Positions 1,860 through 63,045 of a stretch of 64,000 bases of DNA are shown here, piece after piece. The position numbers and the translations under genes are program-made. The DNA comes from Laspinema palackyanum D2c (GTDB lineage Bacteria > Cyanobacteriota > Cyanobacteriia > Cyanobacteriales > Laspinemataceae), in assembly GCF_025370875.1 (NCBI RefSeq), contig NZ_JAMXFD010000004.1:196777-260776 (forward strand), given 5' to 3'. A model generated the notes under the pieces. The model was given only the letters and a program-made list of their open reading frames with translations. It did not search any database and was not told where the DNA came from. The first letter of the stretch is position 1. The number at the start of each line of letters is the position of its first letter.

Positions 1860-2120
1860 TGACGTTCCCTCACTCCATTCTCGCCCATCATTTCTGGGTT
1901 CCAATTAGTTTATCCCATTTTAGGGAGAATTAAACCGGCGTTAGTGCTGTTGAGAACAGACGGGAGTAAAACAGCGGAATAAAGCTACCAAAATTCCCAA
2001 CAATCGATGACATCAACCGGGCGATCGAGATGCAGATTTTAGAGTAAACACCCCACACCCTTGCGGCTGGGGGTGTTTGTCAACCTCCGAAAACTGGATT
2101 GGCTATCAGTGCTAATCGGG

Positions 2121-4169
2121 TTAATTCCAGTTCCCAATCAGGGTAAACGCAGACCAAAAATAAGGGTGAGATAGGTTTATCGTTTTTTGTTCCCTCAATT
2201 CCGGGGGTAGGGGAACGGTTTTGCCATTCGATAGAACTAACATCCCATTTTCTATGCGAACCTCTCCCCTTAACAGCGCCAGTTGGGTTTGCCGTAAAGC
2301 TTCGGCTTTCAGTGGTTTTTCCCCTAATTGGGAATAAAATTCACTCATTAATCCCAGAGTTCCTGCATCGCTGACATACCAGAAACTGGCTAAGGATGCC
2401 TTAGCCCCAGAAAGTACAGCTAACCCCGCAAATCCCAACTCAGCCTCTGTATCTCCCACTGCGGTCCGACAGGCACTTAGGGTTAATAGTTCAATGGGAG
2501 GACTCTGGGAGGTATTCCACCCGAGTTCCGTGGCTAAGTCTCGAATTTGATTGAGTCCGACTCGGCTATCAAAAAACGTGATATAAGAGTTATCTAAATT
2601 TCCCCCTTGAAATTCGGCATGGGTTGCTAAATGGATAATTCCAAAGCGTTTTTCCTGGTTAATTTGTCGGAAATTAGCGGCAGTGAATTGTTCATTCAGA
2701 AAGACATTTCCCTTCCAGGGAGCGCTCACAATATTTTGCAATTCAGTCGGCACCGCAGGGAGGGGATTGAGGTCTTGAAAAATAGCAGAACCCATCCCTA
2801 ATACTTCTCGGTTCCGGATATCAGAATAGGTGACATCAGTTAAGCCAAAACTGGGGACTAAAGCAACGGCATATTTTTCTAATAAAAACTGTTCCCCATC
2901 ATGCAAGGCCACCAGGGGAAGGGTTCTCAACCCAGAATCCATTGAAAAAACTAAAGTTTCAATCCCATTGGCTTCCAGTTGTGCTTCCATTGGAGCAATT
3001 AGCGACTGATAAAGTGATTGGGCGATCGGTAAGTAACTTTTACTGTTGAGCCTTCGGGGATTAGTCAGTTCCGATCGCAAGTTTTGCACCTGTTCAAGAA
3101 GCTGTTCCCGCACGACATTGGGTACCGTTTCGCGAACCGCTACATCCGTGGTTCTCTCAATCAGTCCTTGGGCTAAATCCGCCGAAGCCACTAAGTCAGA
3201 ACTGCCCCCCGATACTCGAAAATTCTGGGGAAAAATCATCACCAGTTCTAATTGGTCCGCTAACGCTGAGACATAAATAAATGAACTCTTGTTACCCGTC
3301 GCTTGCCACAAATCATACAAGGTTTGAGCAATATCATCGGGAGTTGCGGTTTCCCCAAATAACTCCACTTCTAAATAATTGCTAAACTCCATTGCCTGAT
3401 ATTCTTCCAACATTTGAACCGCCACCCCAATATCAGCCGCAGCTAACTGAGTTTCATAACCCGGGCGATCAACTTCTTGGTCCGATAGACTACTCAAGGG
3501 CTGTGCTTCTCCCGTTGTGCTGGGCTCACCTTCGAGAATTTGACCCTCTATGGAATTGGTACTTTCAGTTGTGGGGTCGGGTTCTGGATTATTCTCGCTC
3601 ACCGGAGGAGGAATTTCCTCCTCCAGGGGAATCTCTGGATTCTCGGGGATGACAAGCGGGCCCGTGGGTTCGGGGGACTGAATGTTAATCGGTTCTTGGG
3701 TTTGAACGGGAATCGGTGTCAGCACTTCCCCTGGACTGTCAACAGGGATTACTGGGGTATCTCCAGGTGGTGTGTCTGTGGGAGTTTCTGGGGGAGTTTC
3801 TGTGGGAGTTTCTGCGGGAGTTTCTGTGGGAGTTTCTGTGGGAGTTTCTGCGGGAGTTTCTGCGGGAGTTTCTGCGGGAGTTTCTGCGGGAGTTTCTGCG
3901 GGAGTTTCGGTGGGAGTAGGTAGAGGGGTGATGCTTCCTGTGGGTGCGATCGTTGGCGGTGGCGGTAGCGGTTCCTCCGGTAGCGGTTCCTCCGGTAGCG
4001 GTTCCTCTGGTAGCGGTTCCTCTGGTAGCGGTTCCTCTGGTAGCGGTTCCTCTGGTAGGGGTCCCGTGACATCGGACTGGTTTCCCGTCTGGGTGATGGC
4101 AGGATCAGCAGCGATCGCCACCAATGTCATAGCCAGAAACAATTTCATCCATCCCTTAAACAGCTTCAT
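2121..4169 (-). CDS. Secreted CHAT-domain (caspase-like) peptidase. Has an N-terminal signal peptide, a long Pro/Glu/Thr-rich repetitive linker and a C-terminal CHAT domain.
   Basis: Signal peptide MKLFLAMTLVAIAA. Repeats (PEEPL)x7 and ([AT]ETP)x~12. C-terminal region carries the CHAT His/Cys dyad context (IIHLATHAEF ... LLTLSACRTAVGD). Confidence 0.8.
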   Translation of the reverse strand: MKLFKGWMKLFLAMTLVAIAADPAITQTGNQSDVTGPLPEEPLPEEPLPEEPLPEEPLPEEPLPEEPLPPPPTIAPTGSITPLPTPTETPAETPAETPAETPAETPAETPTETPTETPAETPTETPPETPTDTPPGDTPVIPVDSPGEVLTPIPVQTQEPINIQSPEPTGPLVIPENPEIPLEEEIPPPVSENNPEPDPTTESTNSIEGQILEGEPSTTGEAQPLSSLSDQEVDRPGYETQLAAADIGVAVQMLEEYQAMEFSNYLEVELFGETATPDDIAQTLYDLWQATGNKSSFIYVSALADQLELVMIFPQNFRVSGGSSDLVASADLAQGLIERTTDVAVRETVPNVVREQLLEQVQNLRSELTNPRRLNSKSYLPIAQSLYQSLIAPMEAQLEANGIETLVFSMDSGLRTLPLVALHDGEQFLLEKYAVALVPSFGLTDVTYSDIRNREVLGMGSAIFQDLNPLPAVPTELQNIVSAPWKGNVFLNEQFTAANFRQINQEKRFGIIHLATHAEFQGGNLDNSYITFFDSRVGLNQIRDLATELGWNTSQSPPIELLTLSACRTAVGDTEAELGFAGLAVLSGAKASLASFWYVSDAGTLGLMSEFYSQLGEKPLKAEALRQTQLALLRGEVRIENGMLVLSNGKTVPLPPELREQKTINLSHPYFWSAFTLIGNWN
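3780..3912. repeat. In-frame 12-bp tandem repeat (GGGAGTTTCTG[TC]), about 11 units, encoding the ETPA/ETPT repeats of the CHAT protein.
   Basis: Perfect 12-bp periodicity visible in the sequence. Candidate variable-number tandem repeat (VNTR). Confidence 0.85.
3964..4056. repeat. In-frame 15-bp tandem repeat (GGTAGCGGTTCCTC[CT]), about 6 units, encoding the PEEPL repeats of the CHAT protein.
   Basis: Perfect 15-bp periodicity visible in the sequence. Confidence 0.85.
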
Positions 4170-4199
4170 TGTGAGAATCCTTTTATAAATAAGCCTGTA

Positions 4200-5264
4200 C
4201 TACAACCGATCAAAGGTAAAACCATAACCAATCCCGAGAATAAACCGAGTGCCATCTCCCGCACTTCCAGTTATGTCCGTAATCGCGGGAGAAATCACCA
4301 AGGGAATATTCCGGAACGGCACAACGGAAACCCCCAAAGTGAGGTCCTGACCCGTCCATTCTGCGATCGCACTGACGGGAGGTGCAACCCGCAAAGCCAC
4401 GGATCCAAACAGTCCGACAGTCCCCTCTCCCGCCTCGATATCTGACTCCGATCGGTACTGTCCACCTCCGACCCCCAGGGTCACATACATTTGGCTCCAA
4501 AGGTTCTCCGGTTCATCTAAAACGAAGCGTTTCGTCACCACGCCATACCCAGAGGTCCCCCCATCGGTTTCTCCCCAAGTGAGAGCTCCCTGTATCCCTG
4601 CCGCAATGCCAAAATCGTTCGGCAATTGCCGATGCAATTTTAAGCTGAGACTGCCATCCTCAAAGGCATCACCCCATAAATCCGTCACCGTCACACCCAC
4701 GGTTAAGCCAATATTGTCCCTAGGATTTCCAAATCCGATGCCGAATCCAGCAACCCCATCGCTGCTATCTGTAAACCGCGTTCGTTCCTGTAAACCCAAC
4801 CCAAATCCCGCACTTCCCCAACCGGCACCATAGCCCGAGGGGGTCATCACCGTAATCCCCGGAGAGGCCAAGTAGGGTTTGCTTTGAGTGGTAACATCCG
4901 TACGCGGGCGAAACGGGATGCGTTGGGGCATGAACGGTTGTTCCCCGGGAATCCCCCGATGTAAGGGAGTCCCTGAGCGGGGGGCCGTTTCTTCCGGTGC
5001 TGTGGCGGGGTCTTCTTGGGCAATCTCACCTTGGGGGGAAACTGTCCCCTCCCAGGCATCCGGTTCGGGAAAAAGGACCTCAACCTCAGTGCGATCGCCC
5101 TGAAGGGGTTGGAAAAATAAAGGCTCCAGATGGGCAGCATCAGCAGATAATTCCAGATTGTCCCCGAACCCCCCGGCTTGCCAGGGTTCTACCTCGCCCG
5201 CTTGGGCGACATCAAGGGGAAATAAAATCCCGAAAAGAAGTAACTCAACGATCATACATTTCAT
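4200..5264 (-). CDS. Hypothetical secreted Gly-rich, beta-strand-rich protein, possibly an outer-membrane beta-barrel. Immediately upstream of, and co-directional with, the CHAT gene.
   Basis: Signal-like N-terminus MKCMIVELLLFGILFPLDVAQA. The C-terminal half has alternating hydrophobic/Gly patterns (GFGIGFG, ILGIGYGFTF). The gap to the CHAT gene is 30 bp. Start codon is uncertain (5330, 5264 or 5255). Confidence 0.55.
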   Translation of the reverse strand: MKCMIVELLLFGILFPLDVAQAGEVEPWQAGGFGDNLELSADAAHLEPLFFQPLQGDRTEVEVLFPEPDAWEGTVSPQGEIAQEDPATAPEETAPRSGTPLHRGIPGEQPFMPQRIPFRPRTDVTTQSKPYLASPGITVMTPSGYGAGWGSAGFGLGLQERTRFTDSSDGVAGFGIGFGNPRDNIGLTVGVTVTDLWGDAFEDGSLSLKLHRQLPNDFGIAAGIQGALTWGETDGGTSGYGVVTKRFVLDEPENLWSQMYVTLGVGGGQYRSESDIEAGEGTVGLFGSVALRVAPPVSAIAEWTGQDLTLGVSVVPFRNIPLVISPAITDITGSAGDGTRFILGIGYGFTFDRL

Positions 5265-8493: not shown

Positions 8494-8712
8494 GTTTGTA
8501 GTAACGACTTCAGTCGTTACCGCGTTACTTGGCGTCAGCCAAGTAACGCCCACCCTGGGTTTGCTCGTGTTATGGCAGGAGCCATAACACTCTTGGCAAC
8601 GACTAAAGTCGTTACTACAAACAAGGAGGAAAGCTGCCGCACAAGTCATGCACCCCTCTGAGATTTAAACTCCAGTCCTCGAATGTTTGTAGTAACGACT
8701 TCAGTCGTTCAT
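8494..8712. repeat. Composite cluster of palindromic hairpin repeats immediately downstream of MVP. Contains three GTAGTAACGACTTCAGTCGTTAC-type units, an 11-bp-stem hairpin (CGTTACTTGGC-GTCA-GCCAAGTAACG), a 10-bp-stem hairpin (GTGTTATGGC-AGGA-GCCATAACAC) and a direct repeat CTGCCGCACAAGTCAT x2.
   Basis: Read directly from the sequence. The ORFs 8389-8661(+) and 8392-8649(-) are mirror-image translation artefacts of this structure. Confidence 0.8.
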
Positions 8713-19188: not shown

Positions 19189-19282
19189 GTTCGTAGTAAC
19201 GACTTCAGTCGTTTCCGGCTTAACCAAGTCGAGGATTCAAACCATAAAGCTTAGGATGCTACATTTTAAGGAACCGGAAGAA

Positions 19283-19460
19283 CGACTGAAGTCGTTACTA
19301 CGAACAGAAGAGGGATAACGACTGAAGTCGTTACTACGAACAGAAGAGGGATAACGACTGAAGGCGTTACTACGAACAGAAGAGGGATAACGCCTGAAGG
19401 CGTTACTACGAACTAAGAGAAGATAACGACTGAAGTCGTTACTACAAACTAAGAGGGGAG
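19283..19460. repeat. Tandem array of five 36-bp units, each a 20-bp palindromic hairpin (AACGACTGAAGTCGTT flanked by GTAGTAAC-type arms) plus a conserved 16-bp linker (ACGAACAGAAGAGGGATA).
   Basis: Units begin at 19283, 19319, 19355, 19391 and 19427. Unit 4 carries a compensatory double change (CGCC/GGCG for CGAC/GTCG) and unit 3 is the hybrid. An isolated unit lies at 19190-19214. The ORF 19237-19494(-) with RSNDFSRYPSSV repeats is a translation artefact. Confidence 0.85.
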
Positions 19461-19469
19461 AAACTTGCC

Positions 19470-27039: not shown

Positions 27040-27300
27040 GTTCGTAGTAACGACTTCAGTCGTTCTCTTTCTTAGTTCGTAGTAACGACTTCAGTCGTTC
27101 TCTTTCTTAGTTCGTAGTAACGACTTCAGTCGTTCTCCCCCTTGGGAAGGGATAAGGTGACTCGGACCTTTAATATTTAAGATGCGACCTTTAACGAACT
27201 GAAGAAACGACTGAAGTCGTTACTACGAACATAAAGAAACGACTAAAGTCGTTACTACAAACATTGGAAACGACTGAAGTCGTTACTACGAACAAAGGGA
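27040..27300. repeat. Composite palindromic repeat structure: three tandem ~36-bp hairpin units (TTCGTAGTAACGACTTCAGTCGTTCTCTTTCTTAG), a ~55-bp centre, then three units in inverted orientation (AAACGACTGAAGTCGTTACTACGAACA...).
   Basis: Read directly. Lies between the convergent 3' ends of the ABC gene and the WecB-like gene. Confidence 0.85.
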
Positions 27301-31300: not shown

Positions 31301-31660
31301 TTAGCAGAAATGACCCCCGGAGAAAAGAATTTTGCTTTGCGGGTGGAACATTTGCTGAATAAAATTCAAGCACCGGAATACCGACAGGTAAATATTGAAA
31401 CTTTGATGGAACTCGCGGAAATTTGCGATCGCAACCCCGATTTACAGATTCAGGAATACATCGTCCTGGATGTATTAATTGGTCATGCGGTGCGATTAGC
31501 CTGGATTGAAGGTCATCCGGAACGAAGCGATTGCTATGATGAAGATAAAGCCTTGGCATGGCCTTCATTTTACAATACTTCCCCTTATGTTTGCGCCAGT
31601 TTTGTGGTGAAAGCATTCCGCTACCTGACCAAATTTGGCAAGGCGATCGCAGTCGGGTAA
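28310..31660 (+). CDS. Large glycoside-hydrolase-family-15 (glucoamylase-like) / phosphorylase-kinase alpha/beta-like protein.
   Basis: 1116 aa. N-terminal GH15-like domain ([24 protein letters not shown]...[20 protein letters not shown] ... [16 protein letters not shown]). The overall architecture matches the ~1100-aa phosphorylase b kinase regulatory-subunit homologs common in cyanobacteria. Confidence 0.75.
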   Translation: [1116 protein letters not shown]

Positions 31661-31920
31661 TTCAACCTTAGCACCCGTTGCAAAAACCGGCGGGGGATAA
31701 ATCCCCCGCCTCATAGCTAAAGTCGGTTGAAAACCGACTAAAAACACAATTAATTCAACCATATCATCCGTTGCAACAACCGGCGGGGGATAAATCCCCC
31801 GCCTCATAGCTAAAGTCGGTTGAAAACCGACTAAAGACACCATTTCATAAGACTTTCAGTCGGTTTCAACCGACTTAATTCTGTGAGGCGGGGGTTTTAA
31901 CCCCCGCCGGGTGTGGCAAC
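31661..31920. repeat. Two direct ~87-bp copies and one inverted ~70-bp copy of a double-hairpin element (GGCGGGGGATAAATCCCCCGCC + AGTCGGTTGAAAACCGACT).
   Basis: Copies at 31661-31747 and 31754-31840 (direct) and 31851-31920 (reverse complement). The ORF 31565-31843(-) with repeated LVGFQPTLAMRRGIYPPPV is an artefact of it. Confidence 0.85.
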
Positions 31921-35052: not shown

Positions 35053-35898
35053 TTAGGCAACGCCGTACTGTTCAAACCAAGTGAGAAGGCGACTCCAGGC
35101 ATCTGCTGCTTCGTCTGGGCGGTAGGTGGGACGGTAGTCGGCATAGAATCCGTGGGGGGTGTCGGGATAGAGGATGATTTCGGAGTTGGTGTTGCCGGAG
35201 GCGAGGCGATCGCGCATTTGTTCGACAGTATCGTTAGGAATCAAGTCATCGTCACCGCCGTATAATCCGAGGATGGGAACGGTTAATTCCTCGGCGATAT
35301 CGATGGGATGTTGGGGAGTTAGGGGGGTGGATTCACCGACTAATCGCCCATACCAGGCGACTCCTGCGGTGACTTGGGGGTTATGGGCGCTATACAACCA
35401 GACGATTCGTCCTCCCCAGCAAAATCCAGTGATGCCCAGCTTTTCGGGGTTGCCGTTACTGCTGTTTTGTGCCCAAGCAACGGTAGCATCGAGGTCCGAC
35501 ATCACTTGTTCATCGGGTACTTTAGATACGACTTCGGAGATTATTTGCTGGATGTCTTCCATTTGGGAGACATCTCCCTGTCGGGCAAACATTTCTGGGG
35601 CGATCGCCAGATAACCCTGTTTCGCAAATCTGCGGCAGACATCCTGGATATGTTCATGAACCCCGAAAATTTCCTGGATGACTAGCACAATCGGGAAGTT
35701 TTGTCCCCTGGCAGGCATGGCGCGATAGGCGGGGATTTCTCCATCAGCAACGGGGATAGTCACTTCACCAGCGGTTAATCCTTCGCTATCGGTGGTGATG
35801 ACTTGTTGGGCGAAAATTGGATGGGCGGCAAGGGCAAATCCAGCGGCGATCGCACTCACTTTGATGAATTGTCGGCGGGTTAAAGGTTTCATTGGCAA
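35053..35898 (-). CDS. Dienelactone hydrolase-family protein with a Tat signal peptide.
   Basis: Twin-arginine motif [24 protein letters not shown]. Alpha/beta-hydrolase nucleophile elbow GFCWGG. Also HGFY. Confidence 0.8.
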
Positions 35899-35986
35899 GG
35901 GGTCCTATGGGTTAAAGGAATCATTCGGTCTAATTGTAATCTAAACAAACAACTTTTCTATGACCCCTGCCATGATTTCCCCTCCT

Positions 35987-36775
35987 CTAAGACCACAAAA
36001 ACCCTAAAATTAGCATCCCGATCGCCACAATTCCTGCCACTAAAGTTGCCGTTTCATTGAGCTTTTTTTCCGGCTGTAACGGTTCTTCCGGAGAACTGGG
36101 GGCGTTTTGTCTCTCTCGAACCGGCGTCCAATCTTCCTCCTCTAAACTTTTGGATAATCCCCGCCAGACTCGCGATTGAATTAAGGCATCTTTGCTTTTA
36201 ATTCCGGTAACGACAACTAGGGGACCTTCTCGTTGAGGTAACCCATACTGTTCAAGTTGGGTGGCGAGGGTTTCTTTGGTGCGATCGCAATTTTTGGCGA
36301 GTTTATCGGTAGAATGTTCTTCTCGTTCTCGGTCGGATTTTTGGGGATGACTGGCAAGAGTTGCGCTTGCGGATAATTCTTTTAACAGTTCCCAGTTGAC
36401 GGTAAATCCGTCCGGTCCTCCCACGGGAATTGCTTGGTCAATTTCCGCATCTAATCCGTCTTGTTTTTCCTCTAAAAAAGTGCGTAAGGCGCGGACAGCA
36501 ATGGCCCGTAACTGTTGTTCATTCGTAGCAGAATCTTCGGCAACCCAGGCGATGGAATTGCGAATGGCGCGATCGCGAAAATCGGTCCGTCCCCTCGCCT
36601 CTAACCCAGTAATCAGCAATAGCAACCGTCCGCTATATCGCCCCAAGACGAGAGAGGGAGATTCGGTTTGAATGCAGTCATTAACCCGATTTAAGGTGAG
36701 AATTGAAGGGGTTTCCCGTAGCCAACAGTAGCCTTCTTCCTGAGCAAATCCCCGACTTTTTACATAAATTTCCAT
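35987..36775 (-). CDS. Hypothetical tail-anchored membrane protein, partner of the upstream P-loop GTPase-like gene.
   Basis: 262 aa. Single C-terminal TM helix (TATLVAGIVAIGMLILGFLWS). Start lies 10 bp after the stop of gene 36785-37747. No recognisable domain. Confidence 0.55.
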   Translation of the reverse strand: MEIYVKSRGFAQEEGYCWLRETPSILTLNRVNDCIQTESPSLVLGRYSGRLLLLITGLEARGRTDFRDRAIRNSIAWVAEDSATNEQQLRAIAVRALRTFLEEKQDGLDAEIDQAIPVGGPDGFTVNWELLKELSASATLASHPQKSDREREEHSTDKLAKNCDRTKETLATQLEQYGLPQREGPLVVVTGIKSKDALIQSRVWRGLSKSLEEEDWTPVRERQNAPSSPEEPLQPEKKLNETATLVAGIVAIGMLILGFLWS

Positions 36776-36784
36776 ACTCTTCTC

Positions 36785-37747
36785 CTATCCAATATTCAGC
36801 CAATTTTGACCCTGCAACACCGCATAAGCACCCGTATTTTTACAGCCTTTTGCAAATTCCCGGACTGCATCTTTGAGGTGATTATCCAATCCTAACCAAT
36901 CTCGGATAAAATTAAACAAGCCTAAATTGCGTCGGTCCAAATGCAGTCTTAGCAAAAACCGTAACAAATAGCGCAAAGGCTGTTCGCTGTCTTGGGGATT
37001 GTATTGGGCATCGTGACTGGTTTTTCTGAAAATAAATAACGGTTTACCATCCATCATTTCAATGCGGGAAAAGACCACAGTTCCTACGGTTTGAACTGGG
37101 GTGATAATCACCACGACTTTTGAGAGTAATGATTCCGAACGCAATAAATCTAATACCCTGGCATATCCCGCTTGTACCTGCCGGACTAATTCCGCACTGC
37201 TTTTTTCATCTTGTAAGTATTTTTCGCAGCGGACTGGGGCAAAAATCACCAATCGGGGAGACTCTAATTCGCGATAGACTCGTTGAAATAAATTGGCAAT
37301 TTGTTGGGGTTTATTGACCGCATCATGCCATTGGCCGTTTTTTTCCATTAAGGCAGGGGTATCAATGGCGATCGCCACTGCTGCCGATTCCCGCACAAAT
37401 GTCTCCACTCGTTCCTTTTCTTCCCGCGAACTTTTGGCGGCTAGATATTCTCCGGGATAATCTTGAAAGTGTAGCGCTAATGAGGGAATTGCCCCTCTTC
37501 TACCCAACTCAAATATAAAAGATTTATGGTCTTCCGTACTTTGCATCCATCCTTTGGTTTCAAAACTGTCCGGTAGGGTTTTCAGTTCAGCTAATCGTTC
37601 TTGTAGCAAAGCTGCACTTTCTAAATCTGGGGTCAGTTGCAAATTGGTTTGTCCAATACTGCGTTCAAATTGCTCATACATGGCAGTCAAAAGGCTGGTT
37701 TTACCCACGCCACTGGGTCCCAGCATGGTGACTTTTAATTCCTGCAT
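36785..37747 (-). CDS. P-loop NTPase, probably a small Ras-like GTPase with a C-terminal extension.
   Basis: G1 at the N-terminus (MLGPSGVGKTSLLTAMY), candidate G3 DYPGE, Walker-B-like VAIAIDTP. 320 aa. Confidence 0.6.
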   Translation of the reverse strand: MQELKVTMLGPSGVGKTSLLTAMYEQFERSIGQTNLQLTPDLESAALLQERLAELKTLPDSFETKGWMQSTEDHKSFIFELGRRGAIPSLALHFQDYPGEYLAAKSSREEKERVETFVRESAAVAIAIDTPALMEKNGQWHDAVNKPQQIANLFQRVYRELESPRLVIFAPVRCEKYLQDEKSSAELVRQVQAGYARVLDLLRSESLLSKVVVIITPVQTVGTVVFSRIEMMDGKPLFIFRKTSHDAQYNPQDSEQPLRYLLRFLLRLHLDRRNLGLFNFIRDWLGLDNHLKDAVREFAKGCKNTGAYAVLQGQNWLNIG

Positions 37748-37794
37748 TATGTTCTTGGGTTTAGGGTTGACCTGATTGTTTTTGTAGTTACTTT

Positions 37795-38110
37795 TATGTC
37801 AGCAGCATCAAAGGCAGTTGTCCTTTAACCTCTCCTGACTGTCTAATAATCCGGCGATAAACTCGCTATAAGCGGCCTTCATCGGCAAGGCTTCATCAAT
37901 TTTAATTCGCCGTCCGGTGGCAACGACTTCTTGCCCTATAATCGGATTATACCCGATTTTGGAGTAATTTTCCCAATATAACCCTGTCCCGTGACGCTGT
38001 TATCAGGGTAATTCATTAAAGTTTATCCCATAAGGAGTGGCATAAGCTTGTCGCCACCGAAAGCAATCTACCACCTGGGATAGATTGTGGAAATAGTCCA
38101 GTTGCCTAAT
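37795..38110 (-). pseudogene. Decayed ORF between the kinase and GTPase genes. Two in-frame segments separated by a frameshift/stop.
   Basis: Manual translation of the minus strand gives ...FDRQIRQLDYFHNLSQVVDCFRWRQAYATPYGINFNELP*, then (other frame) QRHGTGLYWENYSKIGYNPIIGQEVVATGRRIKIDEALPMKAAYSEFIAGLLDSQERLKDNCL*. Protein-like composition but no intact ORF of 60 aa or more. Confidence 0.35.
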
Positions 38111-38117
38111 TTGGCGG

Positions 38118-38711
38118 TCAAATTGATTCGGGTCCAAGGTTTTCCTCCGGGGTCCAAGGATGAATTTCAAAGGTTCCTGGATTCTGGGCTATTTTGACCT
38201 GAAATAACTGATGAAATCCTTCGGAGTAGTTCGGGGGGACTAATTTATTGCGAGTCATATAGAGTGCGTAATCCGGGATTCGGGCTTTTCCATCTCGTTG
38301 TCGATTGCGGGTGAGGCAATCGGCAATTTTGGAGTTAAAATAATAGCCGATAATCTTGGCCTGATAGTTTTGTGCAATTTCAATGATAGCGAGGCGATCG
38401 CCCAGGGTGGGATTGGTATTATCCACCACTAAAGAGGTTCCAGATTTGAGATGTTCGGCGATTAAAAAGGCTTGTCTGCGGGCGGGTCTTTTATTGTTTC
38501 GCATCAAATCTTTACTCACCAAAGCATGGGTTTCGGCGAAATGGGTTTGATAAAAGGTGCTTTTCCCCGCCCCTTGCAAGCCGATAAATATTACCAATTC
38601 TATCCCCGGATTTACGCCATTGGTAACCTTGTTATCTAAATGTAGAGGCGATTCGCGAATCGCCTCTACGTTTAGGGTTCGCCTTTTGATAATTTCCAAG
38701 TCATCTATCAT
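38118..38711 (-). CDS. P-loop kinase of the AAA_33 / polynucleotide-kinase-like family.
   Basis: Walker A LVIFIGLQGAGKSTF, Walker B/Asp LVVDNTNP, lid-like CLTRNRQRDGKARIPD. Resembles the kinase domain of Pnkp/T4 Pnk and zeta-toxin-like kinases. Confidence 0.7.
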   Translation of the reverse strand: MIDDLEIIKRRTLNVEAIRESPLHLDNKVTNGVNPGIELVIFIGLQGAGKSTFYQTHFAETHALVSKDLMRNNKRPARRQAFLIAEHLKSGTSLVVDNTNPTLGDRLAIIEIAQNYQAKIIGYYFNSKIADCLTRNRQRDGKARIPDYALYMTRNKLVPPNYSEGFHQLFQVKIAQNPGTFEIHPWTPEENLGPESI

Positions 38712-38888
38712 AAAATGGAGATTAAATCAACCCAAATTCTGAAAATATTTGCCGCAATGAAGTGGTGGCCTAATAGCGGTTAGAAACCGGGTTTTTCACA
38801 CAATCTTTGGTAAAGAGTCATAAATTGGGGTAAAAACCCGGTTTCTTGTCCCACTGAAGGAAGCCTAAATCTGCACTTTCACCCGGTT

Positions 38889-41102
38889 TCAACCGCGATT
38901 CCCCGGCAGAAATTGCATCAATTCCAATTGATTCCCCGCTTCTACGGTATCCACCGCAGCAAACCATTCTCGACGGAGGCGATCGCGACTGCCTAGACGG
39001 TCAAATTCATCTTGCCACACCTCGGACCGAACTTGTTCTAAAAAGATTTGCCACTCGGTTTTCACCCCTTCCACGCGCAATACGCGATCCACAAATTCCT
39101 CAACGATCGCAAACGCTGCCTGATTCGGTTCAACTAACAAATCTTCCAGGGCGGTTTCACAATTATAAACGGCTTCGGCATGAAGGGTTTTTAGGTTTCC
39201 TAAAACTTCAGATGCCGAAACCCCTTGATTCGATAATTTCAATCCCGTCTTATCTGGATTTAATCCATCCAACTGCTGACGAATCCGATGTTGAATCAGT
39301 CCCCGATAGGATAAATTAAATTCATCTAAAATTCTAAACCCTAGTTTGAGTTTCTGTAAATCTTCCGGTAATAGTTCCGCCATTACGCCTAAAAATTCAC
39401 TTCCCCGAACTGGGGTGAGGTTTCCTAATCGTCCCTGTTCTATCAGAACATCCGCGACTCGGGACTTGACTCGCTCGATCGCCTGCTTCAATCCATCATC
39501 TAAGGTCAAAAAATGTTGGGATAAATGGGCGCGAATTTCGTTCAAATATTGATAGTAAGCATTGGGATATCCTCCCACGCGATCGCGTCGTGTTTCTATC
39601 TCTTCTAAAGTGGGAATTCCCGGGTCCTGGCGACAATTTGTAATGGCAATTTGGACTTGCTTTTTAAACTCCAAATCTTCTGCTTCTCGCTGGTGAAACA
39701 GACCCCGCAAAAATCCCTCTAACCCACTGGTTAAGTTATTCCAGAGGGCATCAAATAACCGCAGAAATAGGGGAAATTCGCTCTCTCGTTGGGCCGCTTG
39801 GCCCATGACTTGCCTTGCCTTGACCAGTTCGGCAGCGAGGCGATCTCGCAGGTGCAAGAGTCGGTCTTGACAAGCTGCCGCATACTGTCGGTCCAGTTCG
39901 GTAATTTTAGCCATCAAATACTCCAAAACTCCCTCTAAAATCTGCTCATTCACCGCCACAGAATCAGCGCAATTCACCGTTAGGGTTTTGACCACTTCCA
40001 GATGTTTTTCCGCCATTGTTTCGGCTAAATCTTGGCAATTTTTGCCATTATCTCCATTGCCAGAACCGGCACTGGTTTGGTTGAGAATCATCATCGACCA
40101 AAGGGCGATCGGCAGTTCGGTTAAGGCTGCCGCAGCAGTGTCGTACAACTTGACATCAACATCGGCCCAATAATCCCCCGAGGACTTAGGCATTCTCACA
40201 AATAGAACAAAATCCACCTCATGACCGAGGGTTTCAATCAGTCTCACTTCATCGCCAATGCCGGTATCCCCCAATCCGGGCATATCCACTAAGGCAATGG
40301 TTCCCACATCCCCATTGGGGAAGGTGCAGACAATTTTTACTTGACGCACAGCCAGATAGTTGAAAAAGACGCGCTGACCATCGGGGGTATCTTGTGCGAC
40401 ATATTCGCGAATTTCCCCTTGAGAAATTCGCCGTGGGGAGGGCTGCTGGAGGAGAGTCCGATACTGGTCCAGGTGGGTGTGATAGCGCCGGAGATGTTCG
40501 TGTTTTGCCCCGGTTTGTGCGCCGTAGAGGTCGCGAGGCAGGGGCGGAAGAGACTGTCTTGCAAAGTCATCCAGGGACTGGGGGGCGGGTCCTAGCTGGA
40601 GTTGGTCGTAATAGGGCGCGATCGCCTCGTCTAAAAACGATCGCTCACTATGAAAGAACACTTCCCCGTGAGTTTCCAGGGTGGGATTGTGGTAGATGGT
40701 ACTGAGGACGCCGGTACAATGTTGGCGATCGCCGTCGGGAATTTCCGAGGCAGTCAGTCCCGTTAAACTTTGTAACAGGCGACTTTTCCCTTGTCTAGCG
40801 CGTCCGACAACGCCTATATTCAGGGTATCCCGGGAAAACCGCGCTTTCAGTTTCGCCGTTGCCTCTAATTCTCTGGCAATTTCCACCTGAATTTTCCAAA
40901 AATCCACGTCTTGGAGATGTCCAACGATCGCCAGATCCTCCACGGAATCCAAAAGGCGATCGCGGTGGTCCTGTAAGGTCCGAAGGGCCTGTGCGAGGGA
41001 CCTCAAATTGTCCTCAACCCGACTAATTTTTTCGGCTAAAGGGCGACGTTTTTCGACAATCTGAGCAATTTGTGCGGTTCTGTGATTATTCATTATGGGC
41101 AA
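38889..41102 (-). CDS. Bacterial dynamin-like protein (BDLP-type large GTPase).
   Basis: 737 aa. G1 NIGVVGRARQGKSRLLQSLTG, G3 LVDMPGLGDTG. Long helical stalk/paddle region. Size and order match BDLPs. Confidence 0.8.
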   Translation of the reverse strand: MPIMNNHRTAQIAQIVEKRRPLAEKISRVEDNLRSLAQALRTLQDHRDRLLDSVEDLAIVGHLQDVDFWKIQVEIARELEATAKLKARFSRDTLNIGVVGRARQGKSRLLQSLTGLTASEIPDGDRQHCTGVLSTIYHNPTLETHGEVFFHSERSFLDEAIAPYYDQLQLGPAPQSLDDFARQSLPPLPRDLYGAQTGAKHEHLRRYHTHLDQYRTLLQQPSPRRISQGEIREYVAQDTPDGQRVFFNYLAVRQVKIVCTFPNGDVGTIALVDMPGLGDTGIGDEVRLIETLGHEVDFVLFVRMPKSSGDYWADVDVKLYDTAAAALTELPIALWSMMILNQTSAGSGNGDNGKNCQDLAETMAEKHLEVVKTLTVNCADSVAVNEQILEGVLEYLMAKITELDRQYAAACQDRLLHLRDRLAAELVKARQVMGQAAQRESEFPLFLRLFDALWNNLTSGLEGFLRGLFHQREAEDLEFKKQVQIAITNCRQDPGIPTLEEIETRRDRVGGYPNAYYQYLNEIRAHLSQHFLTLDDGLKQAIERVKSRVADVLIEQGRLGNLTPVRGSEFLGVMAELLPEDLQKLKLGFRILDEFNLSYRGLIQHRIRQQLDGLNPDKTGLKLSNQGVSASEVLGNLKTLHAEAVYNCETALEDLLVEPNQAAFAIVEEFVDRVLRVEGVKTEWQIFLEQVRSEVWQDEFDRLGSRDRLRREWFAAVDTVEAGNQLELMQFLPGNRG

Positions 41103-41270: not shown

Positions 41271-41456
41271 CCGAACAGTTTAGCGGTTTTATTTTTTGGA
41301 GTTCCCTTGGAGGGATACAAGAAAAAAATAAGACCCTTTCATCTTACGGGATGGGGGTCTTATTGAACCATTCTAAATCGTCTTAATTTCAGGGAAACAG
41401 GTAAAAACAATCAAAGTTTTGAAACTTATAACCCTTAAAAATTCAGCGATTTGATG

Positions 41457-45197: not shown

Positions 45198-48100
45198 ATG
45201 CAACTGATGAACGCCATGACCGGACAGCTCATCCAAGGGCGCTATCAACTCATCAAAGACCTCAAGCGAGGTGCTTTTGGTAAACTCTATCTGGCTGAAG
45301 ACCGACAACAGCCGGACCAACCGCGCCCCTGTGTCATTAAACAACTCCAGCCGAATCTTTCCAATCCCACCCTGGTTGAAGAAGCCCGTGGGCGCTTGCA
45401 ACGAGAAATCGAAGTCATGCAAAAATTAAGCGCTCATCCCCTGATTCCGGGAATTTTGGATGGGTTTGAGGAGGAGCAAAAATTTTATATTGTTGAAGAA
45501 TTTATCCCAGGTCAAGACCTCAGTCAAGAAATTATCCGAGGCAACCGCTGGAGTGAAGGCTTGGTGATGGCACTATTGCATCAAGTCCTGGAAGTGTTAG
45601 CGTTCATTCATCAGCACTCGGTGATTCATCGCAATATTAAACCCTCTAATTTAATCCGACGGACTGGCGATCGCAAAATTATCCCGGTGGATTTTGGAGC
45701 GCTTAAAGAAATCGAAACTTTAGCTATCAATCCTCAAGGTCAAATTGGCACAGCGGCGATCGGCACTCCAGGTTATGTCCCCATCGAACAACTCGGGGGC
45801 AAACCTCGCTTTAATAGCGATATTTATGCCCTCGGTATGACCGCGATTCAAGCCTTAACCGGCGTCCCCCCCCGGGAGTTAGAACGGGACCCCAAAACGG
45901 GTCAAACGATCTGGCACCATTTGGCCCCGGTGAACCCGAAGTTGGCTCAGATTCTGGATAAAATGGTGCGTTCAGACTATCAAGACCGCTACCAACAGGC
46001 GACGGAGGTCATCGCTGATTTACGGTCTTTACATGAAATTGGCAATCTCCTCGATGGTCGCTATCAACTGGTGAGTTTGTTAGCCGAACGCCGCTTTAGT
46101 AAAACCTTTTTAGGGGAGGATTTACAACGCCAGGAAATGCCCTGGTGTACGGTAGAGCAAATTAAACCGGCTCAACAAGAGACCTTTCCCTGGTGGGAAG
46201 CGAAAAGCTTTTTTGATGCGGAAGCGCAATTGTTACACCGTTTAGGCACTCATGACCGCATCCCCACGTTGCTGGCAGATTTTGAGCAAAATGGGGCATT
46301 TTATTTGGTCCAGGAGCAGATTGAGGGACAGTCCCTTTCTCATGAATTGCTCCAGGGCAAAAAGTACGAGGAAAAAGAGGCAGTCGCTTTATTACAAGAG
46401 GTCCTAGAAACTCTCGCCTTCGTTCATGAACATCATGCCATTCATTTGGATTTAACCCCCTGGAGTATCTTCCGGCGTCAGTCCGACGGTAAGGTGATGC
46501 TGACCAATTTTGGCGCGGTGAAGCAAATTGGCACCTTGACGATTGACCAGGGCCAGCTCACGACTTCGACGGCGATCGGCACTCCGGGCTATATGCCGAA
46601 GGAACAAATGGTGGGCAATCCCCGCCCGAATAGTGATATCTATGCTCTGGGAGCAGTGGCCCTGCAAGCGTTAACCGGGGTGCGTCCGGATTATCTGGGG
46701 ACGGAACCCCATACGGGCGAGCTCAGTTGGCGCAAGCACGTTCAGGTGAGCGATCGCTTTGGGGCAATTCTGGATAAAATGGTGCGCTCTTATTTCCGCG
46801 AGCGCTATGAATCGGCTCAGGAGGTGTTAGCGGATCTGCGCGCCCTCCAAGAGCCGGTCATTGCCCCCTTGGAGGAGTCGGTCCCGGTGCCGATGGGGGC
46901 GGAGGGTTTTGTCTCTCCCCAGGTCCCCCCAGAACAGCCCCAGGCAGACCTAGGGGCGAGTCCCCCAGTTGCGAATAAAGCGAAGGCTCCCATCGGCGCT
47001 GCCGCTGTAGCCGGGGTGACCCAAGTTTCCAAAAAGTTACCCTTTGCCAAACCCTGGCCGATTCTGGCAGCGGTGGCCCTGATGGGAACGGCAGGGGTGG
47101 CGATCGCCCTGAGCAATTCTCAGCAAACGCGCCAAGCGCGTCAAGACTCGGACCAATTTATCGAAAATGCCAGCCTGCTTTTGGAGTCTCAGGAGTACCT
47201 GGAAGCCCTGGATGAGTGCGATCAGGCGATCGGGATTACGGCGGATTATGCCTTGGCTTGGAAATGTCGTGGGGATGCGCTTTATCTGCTTGATCGCTAT
47301 GACTCGGCTCTCGTGGCTTATGACAATGCCAGTCGTTTAGAACCGAAAAATGCCCGGTATTGGAACAATCGTGGGGAAACTTTGTATCAATTACAGCGCT
47401 ACGAGGAGGCGATCGCAGCTCATGATCGCGCTTTAGAACTTCGTCGCAATGATGTGAATGCCCTGAAGGGTCGGGGTCTGGCTTTACTCAGTTTACATCG
47501 CTACGATGAGGCTCTAGGAGCCCTGGACCAAGCCCTAGAAGAGGAGCCGAATGACCCGCAAGGCTGGGAACGCAAGGCGTTAGTTTTAGACTATTTGCAA
47601 CGTCCCCAGGAGGCCGATCGCGCTTTTGAACGCTCTCTGGCTGCTTACGATAGCCAGTTGGCAAGCAACCCGGATGATTTGAATGCCTGGTTGGAACGGG
47701 GTCGATTACTCAATCAGTTACAGCGTCTGGATGAGGCGATCGCTTCGTTTGATCGCGCTTTGGAGATTAATCCGGAGTTTTATCTCGCCTGGAATGCCAA
47801 GGGAACGACGCTGTATAGTGCGTCTCAATTTACGGAGGCGTTAGCGGCTTACGATCAGGCTCTGGCGATCGAACCGGATTTTTATAAAGGCTGGCATAAT
47901 CGCGGCGTCTTGCTGAGTCTGGGGTTGGGTCGTCACTTTGAGGCGATCGAGGCGTTTGATCGCGCTTTGGCGATTGAGGAGAGTTTTCATCTAGGTTGGC
48001 GCGATCGCGGTTTGGCACAAATGGAACTACGCCGTTATGAAGAGGCAGTGACCTCGTTTGATCAAGCGGTTAAGATTGAGCCAAGGGATGGCAGATCCTG

Positions 48101-48344
48101 GGCGAATCGGGGGATCGCACTCAATGAACTCCGGCGTTATACTGATGCGATCGAATCGTTTGATCAGGCGATCGCCGCTCAAACCCAAGATGCCTTAGTC
48201 TGGACTCAACGGGGAATCGCCCTGGAGTCCATTGAACGGTACGATGAGGCTCTAGTTTCCTACGAAAAAGCCCTAGAAATTCAACCGGATTTCTCTCTGG
48301 CAGAGGAGTCCCGGGACTGGGTTTTAGTCAAGATGGGCCGCTAG
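45198..48344 (+). CDS. Receptor-like protein: two tandem degenerate Ser/Thr protein-kinase-like domains, one TM helix, and 12 or more TPR repeats.
   Basis: Domain 1: GAFGKLY, VIKQL, HRNIKPSNL (Asn at the catalytic Asp position), DFG, GTPGYVPIE. Domain 2: HLDLTPWSIF, NFG (DFG to NFG), GTPGYMPKE. TM helix PILAAVALMGTAGVAIAL. TPR consensus AWxxRGxAL repeated. Confidence 0.8.
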   Translation: MQLMNAMTGQLIQGRYQLIKDLKRGAFGKLYLAEDRQQPDQPRPCVIKQLQPNLSNPTLVEEARGRLQREIEVMQKLSAHPLIPGILDGFEEEQKFYIVEEFIPGQDLSQEIIRGNRWSEGLVMALLHQVLEVLAFIHQHSVIHRNIKPSNLIRRTGDRKIIPVDFGALKEIETLAINPQGQIGTAAIGTPGYVPIEQLGGKPRFNSDIYALGMTAIQALTGVPPRELERDPKTGQTIWHHLAPVNPKLAQILDKMVRSDYQDRYQQATEVIADLRSLHEIGNLLDGRYQLVSLLAERRFSKTFLGEDLQRQEMPWCTVEQIKPAQQETFPWWEAKSFFDAEAQLLHRLGTHDRIPTLLADFEQNGAFYLVQEQIEGQSLSHELLQGKKYEEKEAVALLQEVLETLAFVHEHHAIHLDLTPWSIFRRQSDGKVMLTNFGAVKQIGTLTIDQGQLTTSTAIGTPGYMPKEQMVGNPRPNSDIYALGAVALQALTGVRPDYLGTEPHTGELSWRKHVQVSDRFGAILDKMVRSYFRERYESAQEVLADLRALQEPVIAPLEESVPVPMGAEGFVSPQVPPEQPQADLGASPPVANKAKAPIGAAAVAGVTQVSKKLPFAKPWPILAAVALMGTAGVAIALSNSQQTRQARQDSDQFIENASLLLESQEYLEALDECDQAIGITADYALAWKCRGDALYLLDRYDSALVAYDNASRLEPKNARYWNNRGETLYQLQRYEEAIAAHDRALELRRNDVNALKGRGLALLSLHRYDEALGALDQALEEEPNDPQGWERKALVLDYLQRPQEADRAFERSLAAYDSQLASNPDDLNAWLERGRLLNQLQRLDEAIASFDRALEINPEFYLAWNAKGTTLYSASQFTEALAAYDQALAIEPDFYKGWHNRGVLLSLGLGRHFEAIEAFDRALAIEESFHLGWRDRGLAQMELRRYEEAVTSFDQAVKIEPRDGRSWANRGIALNELRRYTDAIESFDQAIAAQTQDALVWTQRGIALESIERYDEALVSYEKALEIQPDFSLAEESRDWVLVKMGR

Positions 48345-57978: not shown

Positions 57979-58092
57979 TACTCAATCCGGTTGAAAAAGA
58001 CCCGCAGGCTGAAGCCTGGGGCTACACGAACGAAGCCCGCCTGCGCGGGCTAAGACGAAGAAAAAAGACTTTTGACCACCGGATTGAGGGTA
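57979..58092. mobile_element. MITE-like insertion. A ~55-bp GC-hairpin repeat copy (inverted relative to 58146/58208) is bounded by a 10-bp perfect terminal inverted repeat (CTCAATCCGG ... CCGGATTGAG).
   Basis: Terminal inverted repeat at 57981-57990 / 58079-58088. Internal copy 57998-58052 is the reverse complement of the direct repeats at 58146-58262. Confidence 0.5.
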
Positions 58093-58145
58093 TTCCAACA
58101 AATAAATCATCCAAATCCCATTGTTAAGGACCTCCTTTACTCTCT

Positions 58146-58262
58146 TAGCCTGCGAAGGCAGGCTTCGTCCGTATAGCCCCACCCTTCAGGGTGCGGGTTA
58201 TTGTTCTTAGCCTGCGAAGGCAGGCTTCGTCCGTATAGCCCCAGGCTTCAGCCTGCGGGTTT
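58146..58262. repeat. Two direct ~55-bp copies (TTAGCCTGCGAAGGCAGGCTTCGTCCGTATAGCCCCA..CTTCAG..TGCGGGTT), each with a GCCTGCGAAGGCAGGC hairpin.
   Basis: Copies at 58146-58200 and 58208-58262. An inverted copy lies at 57998-58052. Related tail at 9580-9640. Confidence 0.85.
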
Positions 58263-58326
58263 TGGATATTTTATTTTTTGGGATTCCCTTAGTCTCTTTG
58301 ATGAATTTTGTTAGCGATCTATAAAC

Positions 58327-62623: not shown

Positions 62624-62924
62624 GGTTTTTTGACAATAATTAGGGATTCATCAGAAACAAGTCGATACCCTTATTGCGTGAAATAATTGTATCGATGTGA
62701 AAGCCAATTAAAGGGGAGATCAAAGGGGTAGATGTTATTAAAAGGAACCTCGGAAAGGACTAAAGTCCTGACAGTGGCGTTGATAAGCCCGATGCCAGAT
62801 CAGCCCTGTAGCAAGTTACCCTCTAAGAACCTGGGAACAGACTGCCCGATCGCCCTACTTTTAATTTAACCACAAATCTGCCTTTGAAACCGAGTATCCC
62901 GGTGAATCCCTTGAGGGGTTCCAT

Positions 62925-63045
62925 GAAGATGACTCCTGAAGGAGTCACTACGAACGTTTGTAGTAACCCCTTGAGGGGTTGCCTGAAGATGACTCCTGAA
63001 GGAGTCCCTACGAACGTTTGTTTGTAGTAACCCCATGTACAGAAA
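62925..63045. repeat. Two tandem ~52-bp composite hairpin units (GTAGTAACCCCTTGAGGGGTTGCCTGAAGATGACTCCTGAAGGAGTCACTACGAACG).
   Basis: Direct repeat units at about 62947 and 62999, each with two stem-loops. Same family as 5471-5535. Confidence 0.8.

Follow-up and report, generated by a model that had tools for sequence, protein, structure and literature searches.

A conserved operon of a predicted dynamin-like protein, a DO-GTPase2-family GTPase and a tail-anchored partner in filamentous cyanobacteria, with apparent remains of an RNA-repair cassette inserted in the Laspinema lineage

Do neighbouring, co-directional genes for a dynamin-like protein, a kinase, a small GTPase and a membrane-anchored protein form a single GTPase-based system? 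The question is raised by a stretch of 64,000 nt from the cyanobacterium Laspinema palackyanum D2c (GCF_025370875.1, contig NZ_JAMXFD010000004.1, positions 196,777-260,776 of the forward strand; here called the window), in which five elements follow one another on the minus strand. From upstream to downstream these are the gene for a dynamin-like protein (g1, 38889-41102, 737 aa as listed), the gene for a polynucleotide kinase (PNK)-like P-loop kinase of the AAA_33 type (g2, 38118-38711, 197 aa), the remnant of a putative Thg1-like gene (37808-38137, delimited by tblastn and translations), the gene for a predicted GTPase of the DO-GTPase2 family (g4, 36785-37747, 320 aa) and the gene for a tail-anchored membrane protein (g5, 35987-36775, 262 aa). 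All five are present in the window's list of open reading frames (ORFs) where a sequence-only reading of this DNA had placed them. That reading had proposed an uncharacterised five-gene GTPase-based system; our survey of gene neighbourhoods supports a system of three genes, g1, g4 and g5, with the kinase confined to seven loci of the Laspinema lineage.

The survey covered 85 loci compared by tblastn with the four window proteins. We fetched 80 of these loci from a scan of 185,579 species genomes, one genome per species, which detected relatives of the module in at least 185 species; this number is a lower bound because both peptide patterns in the scan were specific for the cyanobacterial type. 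In about 70 of the 85 loci, distributed across the cyanobacterial orders and including an actinomycete, g1, g4 and g5 are adjacent and co-oriented, and the exceptions are mostly contigs that end too early. The genes are thus linked rather than scattered in related genomes, neither g4 nor g5 falls into a housekeeping family, and the proposal of an uncharacterised GTPase-based system holds for the three. All-against-all clustering of 1,070 ORFs from the loci found g4 (82 loci), g5 (82 loci) and g1 (77 loci) as the only conserved families; next in frequency were Uma2 (16 loci) and genes of local Laspinema synteny. The gene order in nearly all other genomes is g1, g4, g5, and outside the window locus the spacers measure about 20-30 nt between g1 and g4 and 10-16 nt between g4 and g5, short enough to indicate an operon. 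The called genes of Anabaena cylindrica, of Allocoleopsis franciscana PCC 7113 and of a Leptolyngbyaceae strain include the same contiguous triplet, encoding proteins of about 730, about 320 and 257-366 aa, with the kinase absent and with unrelated flanking genes. The g1-g4-g5 triplet is therefore a conserved operon of many filamentous cyanobacteria and some actinomycetes.

Divergence rates within the Laspinema lineage speak to the state of the module. For 8-9 orthologues compared by the Nei-Gojobori method, the ratio of nonsynonymous to synonymous substitution rates (dN/dS) is 0.065-0.093 for g1, 0.005-0.05 for g4, the most conserved gene of the module, and 0.11-0.20 for g5. All three genes are under strong purifying selection, which indicates that the module is still functional despite its interruption in the window. 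At the other end of its range, in the actinomycete Nonomuraea gerenzanensis, the three proteins of the triplet match our profiles with E-values of 3e-205, 2e-91 and 4e-19, and the third protein is anchored by a transmembrane (TM) helix there too. A TPR-CHAT (caspase-like) protein is encoded upstream of the Nonomuraea triplet (locus L089 of the survey, 1993-4722). Such a protein also adjoins the triplet in the Leptolyngbyaceae strain (L005, 10765-14349), and a CHAT fragment lies near the Allocoleopsis triplet (L003, 704-946); these cases are too few to judge.

What might the three proteins do? g1 has a G1 motif (GRARQGKS) and a G3 motif (DMPGLGD), and its homologues align from residue 4, so that translation probably begins at the ATG at 41093, for a protein of 734 aa. 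Long N-terminal helices are followed by a GTPase domain at about residues 94-376 and by a C-terminal helical trunk. With 20.1 bits, the window protein falls short of the 27-bit cutoff of the Pfam model Dynamin_N; the same model is matched by all 30 aligned members of the g1 family (best E 1.4e-6), and the G1, G2 (T130) and G3 columns are invariant in the family alignment. An AlphaFold2 (AF2) model built from a 30-sequence alignment (pLDDT 85) was compared with the PDB by Foldseek. All of the best 50 matches belonged to the dynamin superfamily, headed by Nostoc BDLP (2j69, E 7e-13), with SynDLP, IniA, Campylobacter DLP1/2, Fzo1/MFN, Drp1, OPA1 and Mx among the others. The matches to BDLP, SynDLP, IniA and Campylobacter DLP1/2 are full-length, and their TM-scores of 0.25-0.3 are low, as expected for hinged proteins. 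The model also has the helical neck/trunk bundle contributed from both sides of the GTPase domain. On this structural prediction g1 is a bacterial dynamin-like protein with a BDLP/mitofusin-type fold, for which self-assembly and membrane remodelling would be the predicted activity by analogy. Inspecting its translation by eye, we recognised no strongly hydrophobic stretch or paddle, and a 19-residue hydropathy scan of three g1 homologues gave maxima of 1.0-1.3. Searches with single sequences and with profiles found no relatives of solved structure for g1, g4 or g5.

g4 starts directly with the P-loop strand and has the motifs GPSGVGKTSLL, at its N-terminus, and DYPG. It matches the Pfam family PF19993 (DO-GTPase2) with 41 bits against a cutoff of 27 (E 2.3e-10); its homologues from Nonomuraea and from a Nostoc plasmid score 44 and 36 bits, and its match to MMR_HSR1 is weak (E 0.007). 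By these matches g4 is assigned to the DO-GTPase2 family, as a putative small P-loop GTPase of the TRAFAC class. Its N-terminal G domain is followed by a conserved C-terminal extension of about 120 aa, and the position of the NKxD motif is taken by a conserved AP-x-[KR]-C-E-x-Y motif. We collected 817 homologues, of which the closest, from Laspinema, are 98-100% identical and the others, from many cyanobacterial genera, 49-78% identical.

g5 starts 9 nt past the g4 stop codon and ends in a hydrophobic helix. It has no match in Pfam, NCBIfam or PADLOC, so that Pfam, for the two genes that the sequence-only reading had left without a family, supplies one for g4 and none for g5. The AF2 model of g5, built from 40 sequences (pLDDT 88, pTM 0.81), consists of a ββαβββαα domain at residues 1-115, an α/β domain at about 128-221, a disordered linker and a TM helix at 241-261. 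DSSP assigns to the model strands at 2-7 and 17-19, a helix at 24-34, strands at 41-47, 50-64 and 70-80 and helices at 83-99 and 108-114, before the α/β domain at 128-221. As modelled, residues 1-115 have the topology and order of a longin domain, and the α/β domain that follows resembles a DENN core. Longin, roadblock and DENN modules regulate small GTPases, as in MglB, folliculin-FNIP and the DENN guanine nucleotide exchange factors (GEFs) of Rab proteins. The best fold matches of g5 are TagF, DENND10, FNIP2 and Nprl2, all of them GTPase regulators and all of them weak matches, and two independent methods both point, weakly, to longin/DENN-type regulators of GTPases. A Roadblock/LC7-type fold had been suggested for this pair of genes, and it is borne out to the extent that the model has the longin topology and finds longin/DENN-type proteins as its best matches, with the weakness of those matches as the reservation. 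The g5 protein thus looks, weakly, like a longin/DENN-like GTPase regulator, and GEF or GTPase-activating protein (GAP) activity on g4 would be a predicted role. The g5 family forms 604 clusters at 50% identity. Its conserved domain is N-terminal in nearly all of the matches listed, and the extracytoplasmic segment beyond the TM helix is variable: its length in homologues ranges between 0 and about 190 aa, and in five of 40 members it contains WD40 repeats.

The kinase and the remnant have to be accounted for separately. g2 matches Pfam AAA_33 (PF13671) with 48 bits against a cutoff of 27 and has the Walker A motif GLQGAGKST; at the level of domains it also has sub-threshold NCBIfam matches to PNK-3'Pase (TIGR01663) and bacterial Pnkp (TIGR04075), far below the full-length cutoffs of both. 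It is present in seven of the 85 loci, all of the Laspinema/Phormidium CCY1219 lineage, lying between g1 and g4 in six of them and directly upstream of g4 in the seventh (L014), and it is missing from L007 and L013, two close relatives in which g4 has 95-98% identity to that of the window. Its dN/dS of 0.18-0.29 marks it as constrained, less so than the core genes. The best plasmid relative of g2 is a kinase of Deinococcus taeanensis (48% identical), whose gene overlaps a Thg1-family gene by 4 bp and has Hen1 and nucleotidyltransferase genes adjoining. The kinase and Thg1-like pair is also intact in Embleya, and g2 is 46-48% identical to the Deinococcus and Embleya kinases, both encoded immediately before a Thg1-like gene.

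The partner that these kinases have elsewhere is recognisable in the window as a wreck. The Thg1-family protein of Deinococcus used as reference (259 aa) is assigned by Pfam to Thg1/Thg1C. By tblastn its residues 186-243 correspond to window positions 37856-38029, with 62% identity through a double stop (E 1.6e-21), and its residues 1-26 correspond, weakly, to 38060-38137. About 108 codons survive, equivalent to residues of about 1-26, 131-150 and 183-243 of the reference; the catalytic N-terminal palm domain has been deleted. Given this match and the missing catalytic domain, the decayed ORF is best described as a Thg1-like (tRNA-His guanylyltransferase family) pseudogene. The sequence-only reading had rightly called the stretch a gene remnant, and its proposed frameshift has to be replaced: the surviving parts are in a single frame, broken by an in-frame TGA TAA and by two large internal deletions. 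The kinase-less loci L007 and L013 keep only the 3' scrap of the remnant, and the similarity of the L007 spacer to the window is limited to the 204 bp immediately before g4 (37748-37951, 96% identity) and a short piece past the g1 stop. Judged by these similarities, g2 and the remnant are what is left of an RNA-repair cassette that was inserted between g1 and g4 in the Laspinema lineage only. We found nothing to support the reading of the kinase as a module of a conflict system.

In the window strain the kinase gene carries an insert of its own. An in-frame insert of about 102 nt on the minus strand (38602-38703, boundaries approximate) lies at its 5' end and adds about 34 codons; it contains a near-perfect palindrome of 20+20 nt (38636-38675) and has an ATAGA duplication at its bounds. 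The orthologues in L024, L006, L010, L011, L012 and L014 have no insert and start directly with M-I/T/S/E-E-(I/L/V)-(I/V)-IF-IGL, a start region that the insert displaces. The 28-nt core of the palindrome occurs as a single copy in the window. The insert looks like a small mobile hairpin element.

The island as a whole had been read as an accessory insertion bordered by hairpin repeats between housekeeping genes. The housekeeping flanks are real: a dienelactone hydrolase gene (PF01738, 210 bits) and a gene for a CtpA-type S41 peptidase (PF03572, 202 bits), with methyltransferase, aminotransferase and IspG genes farther out. The bordering hairpins are not. A search at the g5 end (35850-36000) turned up no inverted repeats, and the g1 end (41285-41364) yielded just two, both short. 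The GC content of the island is the same as that of its flanks, and no tRNA gene was found in the window. We therefore rejected hairpin repeats and other mobile-element signatures as borders of the island, and the accessory insertion so defined finds no support. The clear hairpins are internal. One is the palindrome at the 5' end of the kinase gene; the other is an imperfect 28-nt inverted repeat just past the g1 stop (38782-38846, strand not assigned), whose arms are 82% complementary (AGAAACCGGGTTTTT...AAAAACCCGGTTTCT). This repeat marks the upstream edge of the inserted segment, a sequence resembling it is found in L006 and L007, and it is possibly a terminator or attenuator, or a small repeat element.

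Beyond the standard operon we found several variants. In Phormidium sp. CCY1219 (L014) the kinase, g4 and g5 lie together and g1 is not found within 8 kb upstream, where a gene for an M28 peptidase lies on the opposite strand; another contig carries a g1 homologue (71% identical), which means that the operon is split in that genome. Divergent four-gene versions, in which the extra gene encodes 139-152 aa, occur on plasmid 3 of Nostoc carneum and on a plasmid of Streptomyces aurantiacus. Dynamins related to g1 are encoded on ten plasmids, and some of them belong to sister clades with different partners. On the Stanieria plasmid pSTA7437.02, for example, the genes after that of a sister dynamin encode a P-loop protein of 389 aa and a protein of 992 aa, neither of them detected by the g4 and g5 profiles, with an NB-ARC gene adjoining. 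A g1-like dynamin gene on plasmid pPg_02 of Pseudanabaena galeata (L093, 5001-8368) is split into two ORFs by an insert of about 1.2 kb; toxin-antitoxin, HNH, integrase and transposase genes abound in this region, and no g4 or g5 homologue follows the dynamin gene. Searches of IMG/VR and of the GenBank phage records did not find the module. When the 131 immediate neighbours of the triplets were scanned with Pfam and PADLOC, Uma2 (PF05685, PADLOC candidate PDC-S03) was identified in 16 cases and anything else in at most four. A conserved fourth gene or a defence-island context was accordingly rejected, as only Uma2 recurs among the 1,070 clustered ORFs and the 131 neighbours.

How does the triplet compare with systems already described? 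Most bacterial dynamin genes lie in an operon with a partner (PMC6104087). g1 shares this arrangement, and the predicted fold of helices, GTPase domain and neck/trunk, with BDLP, SynDLP, Campylobacter DLP1/DLP2, IniA/IniC and DynA. It differs from them in its partners, which are a GTPase assigned to the DO-GTPase2 family and a tail-anchored protein instead of a second dynamin, and further in that it scores below the Dynamin_N cutoff and that a hydrophobic paddle was not recognised by eye. From the Pfam-based census of cyanobacterial dynamins (Jilly et al. 2018) the triplet locus is apparently missing for Microcoleus PCC 7113 and A. cylindrica PCC 7122, with positions estimated from gene density. 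The same study describes an 'HSR1 clade' of cyanobacterial dynamins that are followed by GTP-binding proteins of the MMR_HSR1 type. The theme of a dynamin-like gene and then a gene for a small GTP-binding protein is the same, and the sister dynamin of Stanieria follows it as well; in the triplet, however, the second protein is matched by DO-GTPase2, and a tail-anchored third gene is not described by Jilly et al. 2018. We found no published description of the triplet itself in a literature that we covered incompletely.

From the side of g4, the nearest comparison is with the DO-GTPase-GAP1 systems of Kaur et al. 2020 (PMC7159879), in which the DO-GTPase is often doubled and often accompanied by zinc ribbons, next to a three-domain GAP1 and variable effectors. 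Among them the GAP1-N2 systems are membrane-proximal, are found in multicellular bacteria and have a GTPase pair linked to tubulin or HSP70 (PMC7159879). The triplet has in common with the DO-GTPase-GAP1 systems the Pfam family of the GTPase and a constant downstream partner, which in those systems too is often TM-anchored with variable extracellular parts. Proximity to the membrane and an association with multicellular bacteria are further features common to both. g5 is only positionally analogous to GAP1. None of 40 g5 homologues matches the GAP1 Pfam models at E <= 1, and since no GAP1-N, -M or -C domain was recognised in them, g5 was rejected as a GAP1. The triplet further differs in having no zinc ribbons, second DO-GTPase, GASH/FNIII components, variable effectors or effector-associated domains, and the DO-GTPase-GAP1 systems, unlike the triplet, are not mainly cyanobacterial. 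The word 'dynamin' occurs nowhere in Kaur et al. 2020 (PMC7159879). A pairing of g1 and g4 as paralogous 'double GTPases' was also rejected: their profiles align over only 21 columns, around the P-loop, with a probability of 3.6%.

RdcA/RdcB (YjdA/YjcZ) of E. coli and the LeoA/LeoBC 'Dynamins' system (Eleos) likewise consist of a dynamin-like GTPase and a dedicated partner that act as a signalling or defence module. RdcB is a member of the YjcZ family (PF13990, 478 bits), unrelated to g4 and g5, and RdcA aligns with g1 only around the P-loop. With an hhalign probability of 0.4% for the g4 profile against RdcB, we regard RdcA/RdcB as an analogue and not a homologue. Membership of LeoA/LeoBC was rejected as well, as the PADLOC LeoBC model gave E 0.037 (11 bits) and LeoA no match; it too is an analogue rather than a homologue. 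Among longin, Roadblock and DENN regulators (MglB-MglA, folliculin-FNIP, GATOR1 Nprl2/3, DENN Rab GEFs, TagF), the g5 model shares the order of a longin domain and then an α/β domain, and the position beside a small GTPase; the similarity is weak and without a sequence signal, and the anchoring of g5 by a C-terminal helix sets it apart. The kinase of the window, finally, resembles that of the bacterial Thg1-like RNA-repair cassettes found near Hen1/Pnkp, with the difference that the Thg1-like gene is dead here and the cassette lies inside an unrelated operon.

These comparisons allow a mechanism to be proposed for the triplet. g5 would be held in the cytoplasmic or the thylakoid membrane by its C-terminal helix, and its longin/DENN-like cytoplasmic module would serve g4 as exchange factor, GAP or docking platform. 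g4 would be a nucleotide-dependent switch, whose active state recruits or licenses g1 at the membrane that carries g5. By analogy with other dynamins, g1, which has no obvious hydrophobic paddle of its own, would oligomerise once recruited and remodel the bilayer by tethering, fusion or sealing. The variable segment of g5 past the TM helix, with WD40 repeats or other parts, could couple the switch to a signal from the far side of the membrane. The bacterial dynamins DynA, IniA, BDLP and SynDLP remodel or repair membranes, and characterised bacterial dynamins have been linked to membrane stress and to phage-related protection (PMC9950537); DO-GTPases are cited, in a paper on PSP systems, as predicted players in membrane-related stress. 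Physiologically, and this is the least certain part of the proposal, the most likely task of the triplet would be to survey or repair membranes when the envelope is under stress, possibly also from phage-induced damage. For the whole account, a three-gene operon with an inserted cassette, a g5-g4-g1 cascade and a role in membrane surveillance or repair, we consider the chances to be about evenly balanced.

Several observations weigh against this account. The lack of a canonical NKxD motif in g4 means that its specificity for guanine is not established. The residue that follows DxxG is variable in the g4 family (E, G, K, T or D); the window protein reads DYPGE, whose glutamate may or may not correspond to the conserved Walker B glutamate of Kaur et al. 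That g1 depends on g5 to reach the membrane is a guess from the lack of a hydrophobic loop as judged by eye. In the window about 1.1 kb with a hairpin separates g1 from g4-g5, so that their co-transcription is not assured here. A conflict system would explain the patchy distribution, the two copies in some genomes, the plasmid variants and the variable g5 tail no less well than a repair system, and no genetically tractable model organism carries the module.

A possible objection is indeed that the triplet is an anti-phage or conflict system of the DO-GTPase type (Kaur et al. 2020), with g5 in the place of GAP1 and a dynamin replacing the polymer-forming effectors (tubulin, HSP70) of the GAP1-N2 systems. 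Infection would be sensed through the variable tail of g5, and the dynamin would then seal membranes, delaying lysis, or kill the cell. The family to which g4 is assigned was defined from conflict systems, and g5 lies directly downstream of the GTPase, is TM-anchored and has a variable tail, as GAP1 often does in GAP1-N2 systems; against this stand the absence of GAP1 domains from all 40 g5 homologues and the lack of zinc ribbons, of a paralogous second GTPase and of variable effector genes or effector-associated domains. A patchy distribution concentrated in filamentous and colonial bacteria, two copies each in Waterburya and Scytonema, and plasmid variants that in some cases lie beside NB-ARC or toxin-antitoxin genes would suit a defence role, but the very high conservation and very low dN/dS are unlike those of arms-race genes, and the module is absent from IMG/VR and phage records. 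Uma2, a PADLOC candidate, makes up 16 of the 131 immediate neighbours, and known defence genes other than Uma2 are singletons among them; in the window the flanks are housekeeping genes. Uma2 genes are very numerous in cyanobacteria, so that the adjacency could reflect either their high copy number or a real association, and as possible background it counts against a defence role. PADLOC, a check that might have revealed a known defence system, gave no significant match for g1, g2, g4 or g5. Bacterial dynamins have nonetheless been tied to phage resistance by B. subtilis DynA and by the LeoA/LeoBC 'Dynamins' system. On balance we consider a dedicated conflict system somewhat improbable; a defence role may still apply.

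The conservation that speaks against an arms race could instead indicate a constitutive, developmental or housekeeping system for the membrane architecture of multicellular bacteria, active in thylakoid or septal remodelling, fragmentation, baeocyte or hormogonium formation, or hyphal compartmentalisation. Identities of 49-78% for g4 across cyanobacterial orders, very strong purifying selection, near-confinement to filamentous and pleurocapsalean cyanobacteria and actinomycetes, and the housekeeping genes around the window locus would all agree with it, as would the role of Streptomyces DynA and DynB in sporulation septation cited in PMC9950537. A core developmental gene, however, would hardly be expected in duplicate and on plasmids or with flanking genes that change with every genus, the scan found relatives in few (at least 185) of the 185,579 species genomes, and Anabaena PCC 7120 and Nostoc punctiforme are not among the matches listed; we judge this explanation decidedly unlikely. 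That all five elements form a single system with the kinase as an integral signalling or effector component, as first proposed for this locus, is very improbable in our view. The kinase gene is co-directional, lies between g1 and g4 in six Laspinema-lineage loci and directly upstream of g4 in L014, is kept at 66% identity in Phormidium sp. CCY1219 and is under purifying selection; but it is absent from 78 of the 85 loci, two close relatives with 95-98% identical g4 included, its nearest relatives pair with Thg1-like genes in RNA-repair loci, in the window the wreck of one follows it directly, and its 5' end carries a further insertion in the window strain. The cascade from a g5 anchor through g4 to g1 could, finally, be taken further than membrane repair, as a self-contained bacterial counterpart of eukaryotic membrane trafficking: a longin/DENN-like anchor would control a small GTPase, which would recruit a dynamin to cut, fuse or seal membranes, the whole having originated, or persisted, in multicellular cyanobacteria and actinomycetes, with the variable tail responding to signals. 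We put this forward as speculation that is rather unlikely to hold in full.

Other repeats and features of the window are recorded here for completeness. At 1418-1708 on the plus strand there is a match to the Rfam family 5_ureB_sRNA, a Helicobacter antisense RNA family (87 bits, E 3.8e-21), which probably reflects conserved ureB coding sequence on the opposite strand. A borderline match to the Rfam family CRISPR-DR28 (35.7 bits, cutoff 35) lies at 58029-58052, and two tandem copies of a hairpin-rich 62-nt repeat at 58143-58266; sequence like this repeat (…GCCCGCACCCT.AAGGGTGGGGCTATACGGACGAAGCCTGCCT.CGCAGGCTA…) also occurs past the g1 stop in L010 and L011. At 19235-19462, 8582-8626 and 27190-27297, tandem units of 31-36 nt with the hairpin AACGACTGAAGTCGTT and then ACTACGAAC resemble a dispersed family of short hairpin repeats. 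Hairpin-containing two-copy repeats are found at 31658-31843 (93 nt) and 62905-63021 (60 nt). Shorter tandem repeats comprise 21-nt units at 1-129, and units of 12 nt at 3726-3929 and of 15 nt at 3949-4083 that are probably low-complexity coding sequence. At 45754-46840 two segments 816 nt apart are 70-77% identical (repeat families D8 and D10), which suggests tandem paralogous genes or domains; they lie upstream of a TPR-like repeat region at 47397-48305.

For annotation, our results mean that the kinase and the decayed ORF, as the remains of a putative RNA-repair pair, should not be counted in GTPase systems. The triplet itself reads as a bacterial dynamin operon whose predicted partners are a switch of the DO-GTPase2 family and a longin/DENN-like membrane anchor, the assignment of the anchor as key regulator being weak. 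How bacterial dynamins work in vivo and how they are targeted to membranes is largely unexplained, especially in the thylakoid-bearing cyanobacteria, and the triplet offers two obligate, co-conserved partners for which the predicted roles of switch and anchored regulator allow direct tests of binding, of GEF or GAP activity and of localisation. The DO-GTPase family, previously the subject only of computational predictions of 'conflict systems', is linked here to a putative dynamin effector and extended into the cyanobacteria. If the longin/DENN assignment of g5 is true, the triplet would represent a bacterial logic of small GTPase, longin regulator and dynamin, which would bear on how the trafficking machinery of eukaryotes was assembled.

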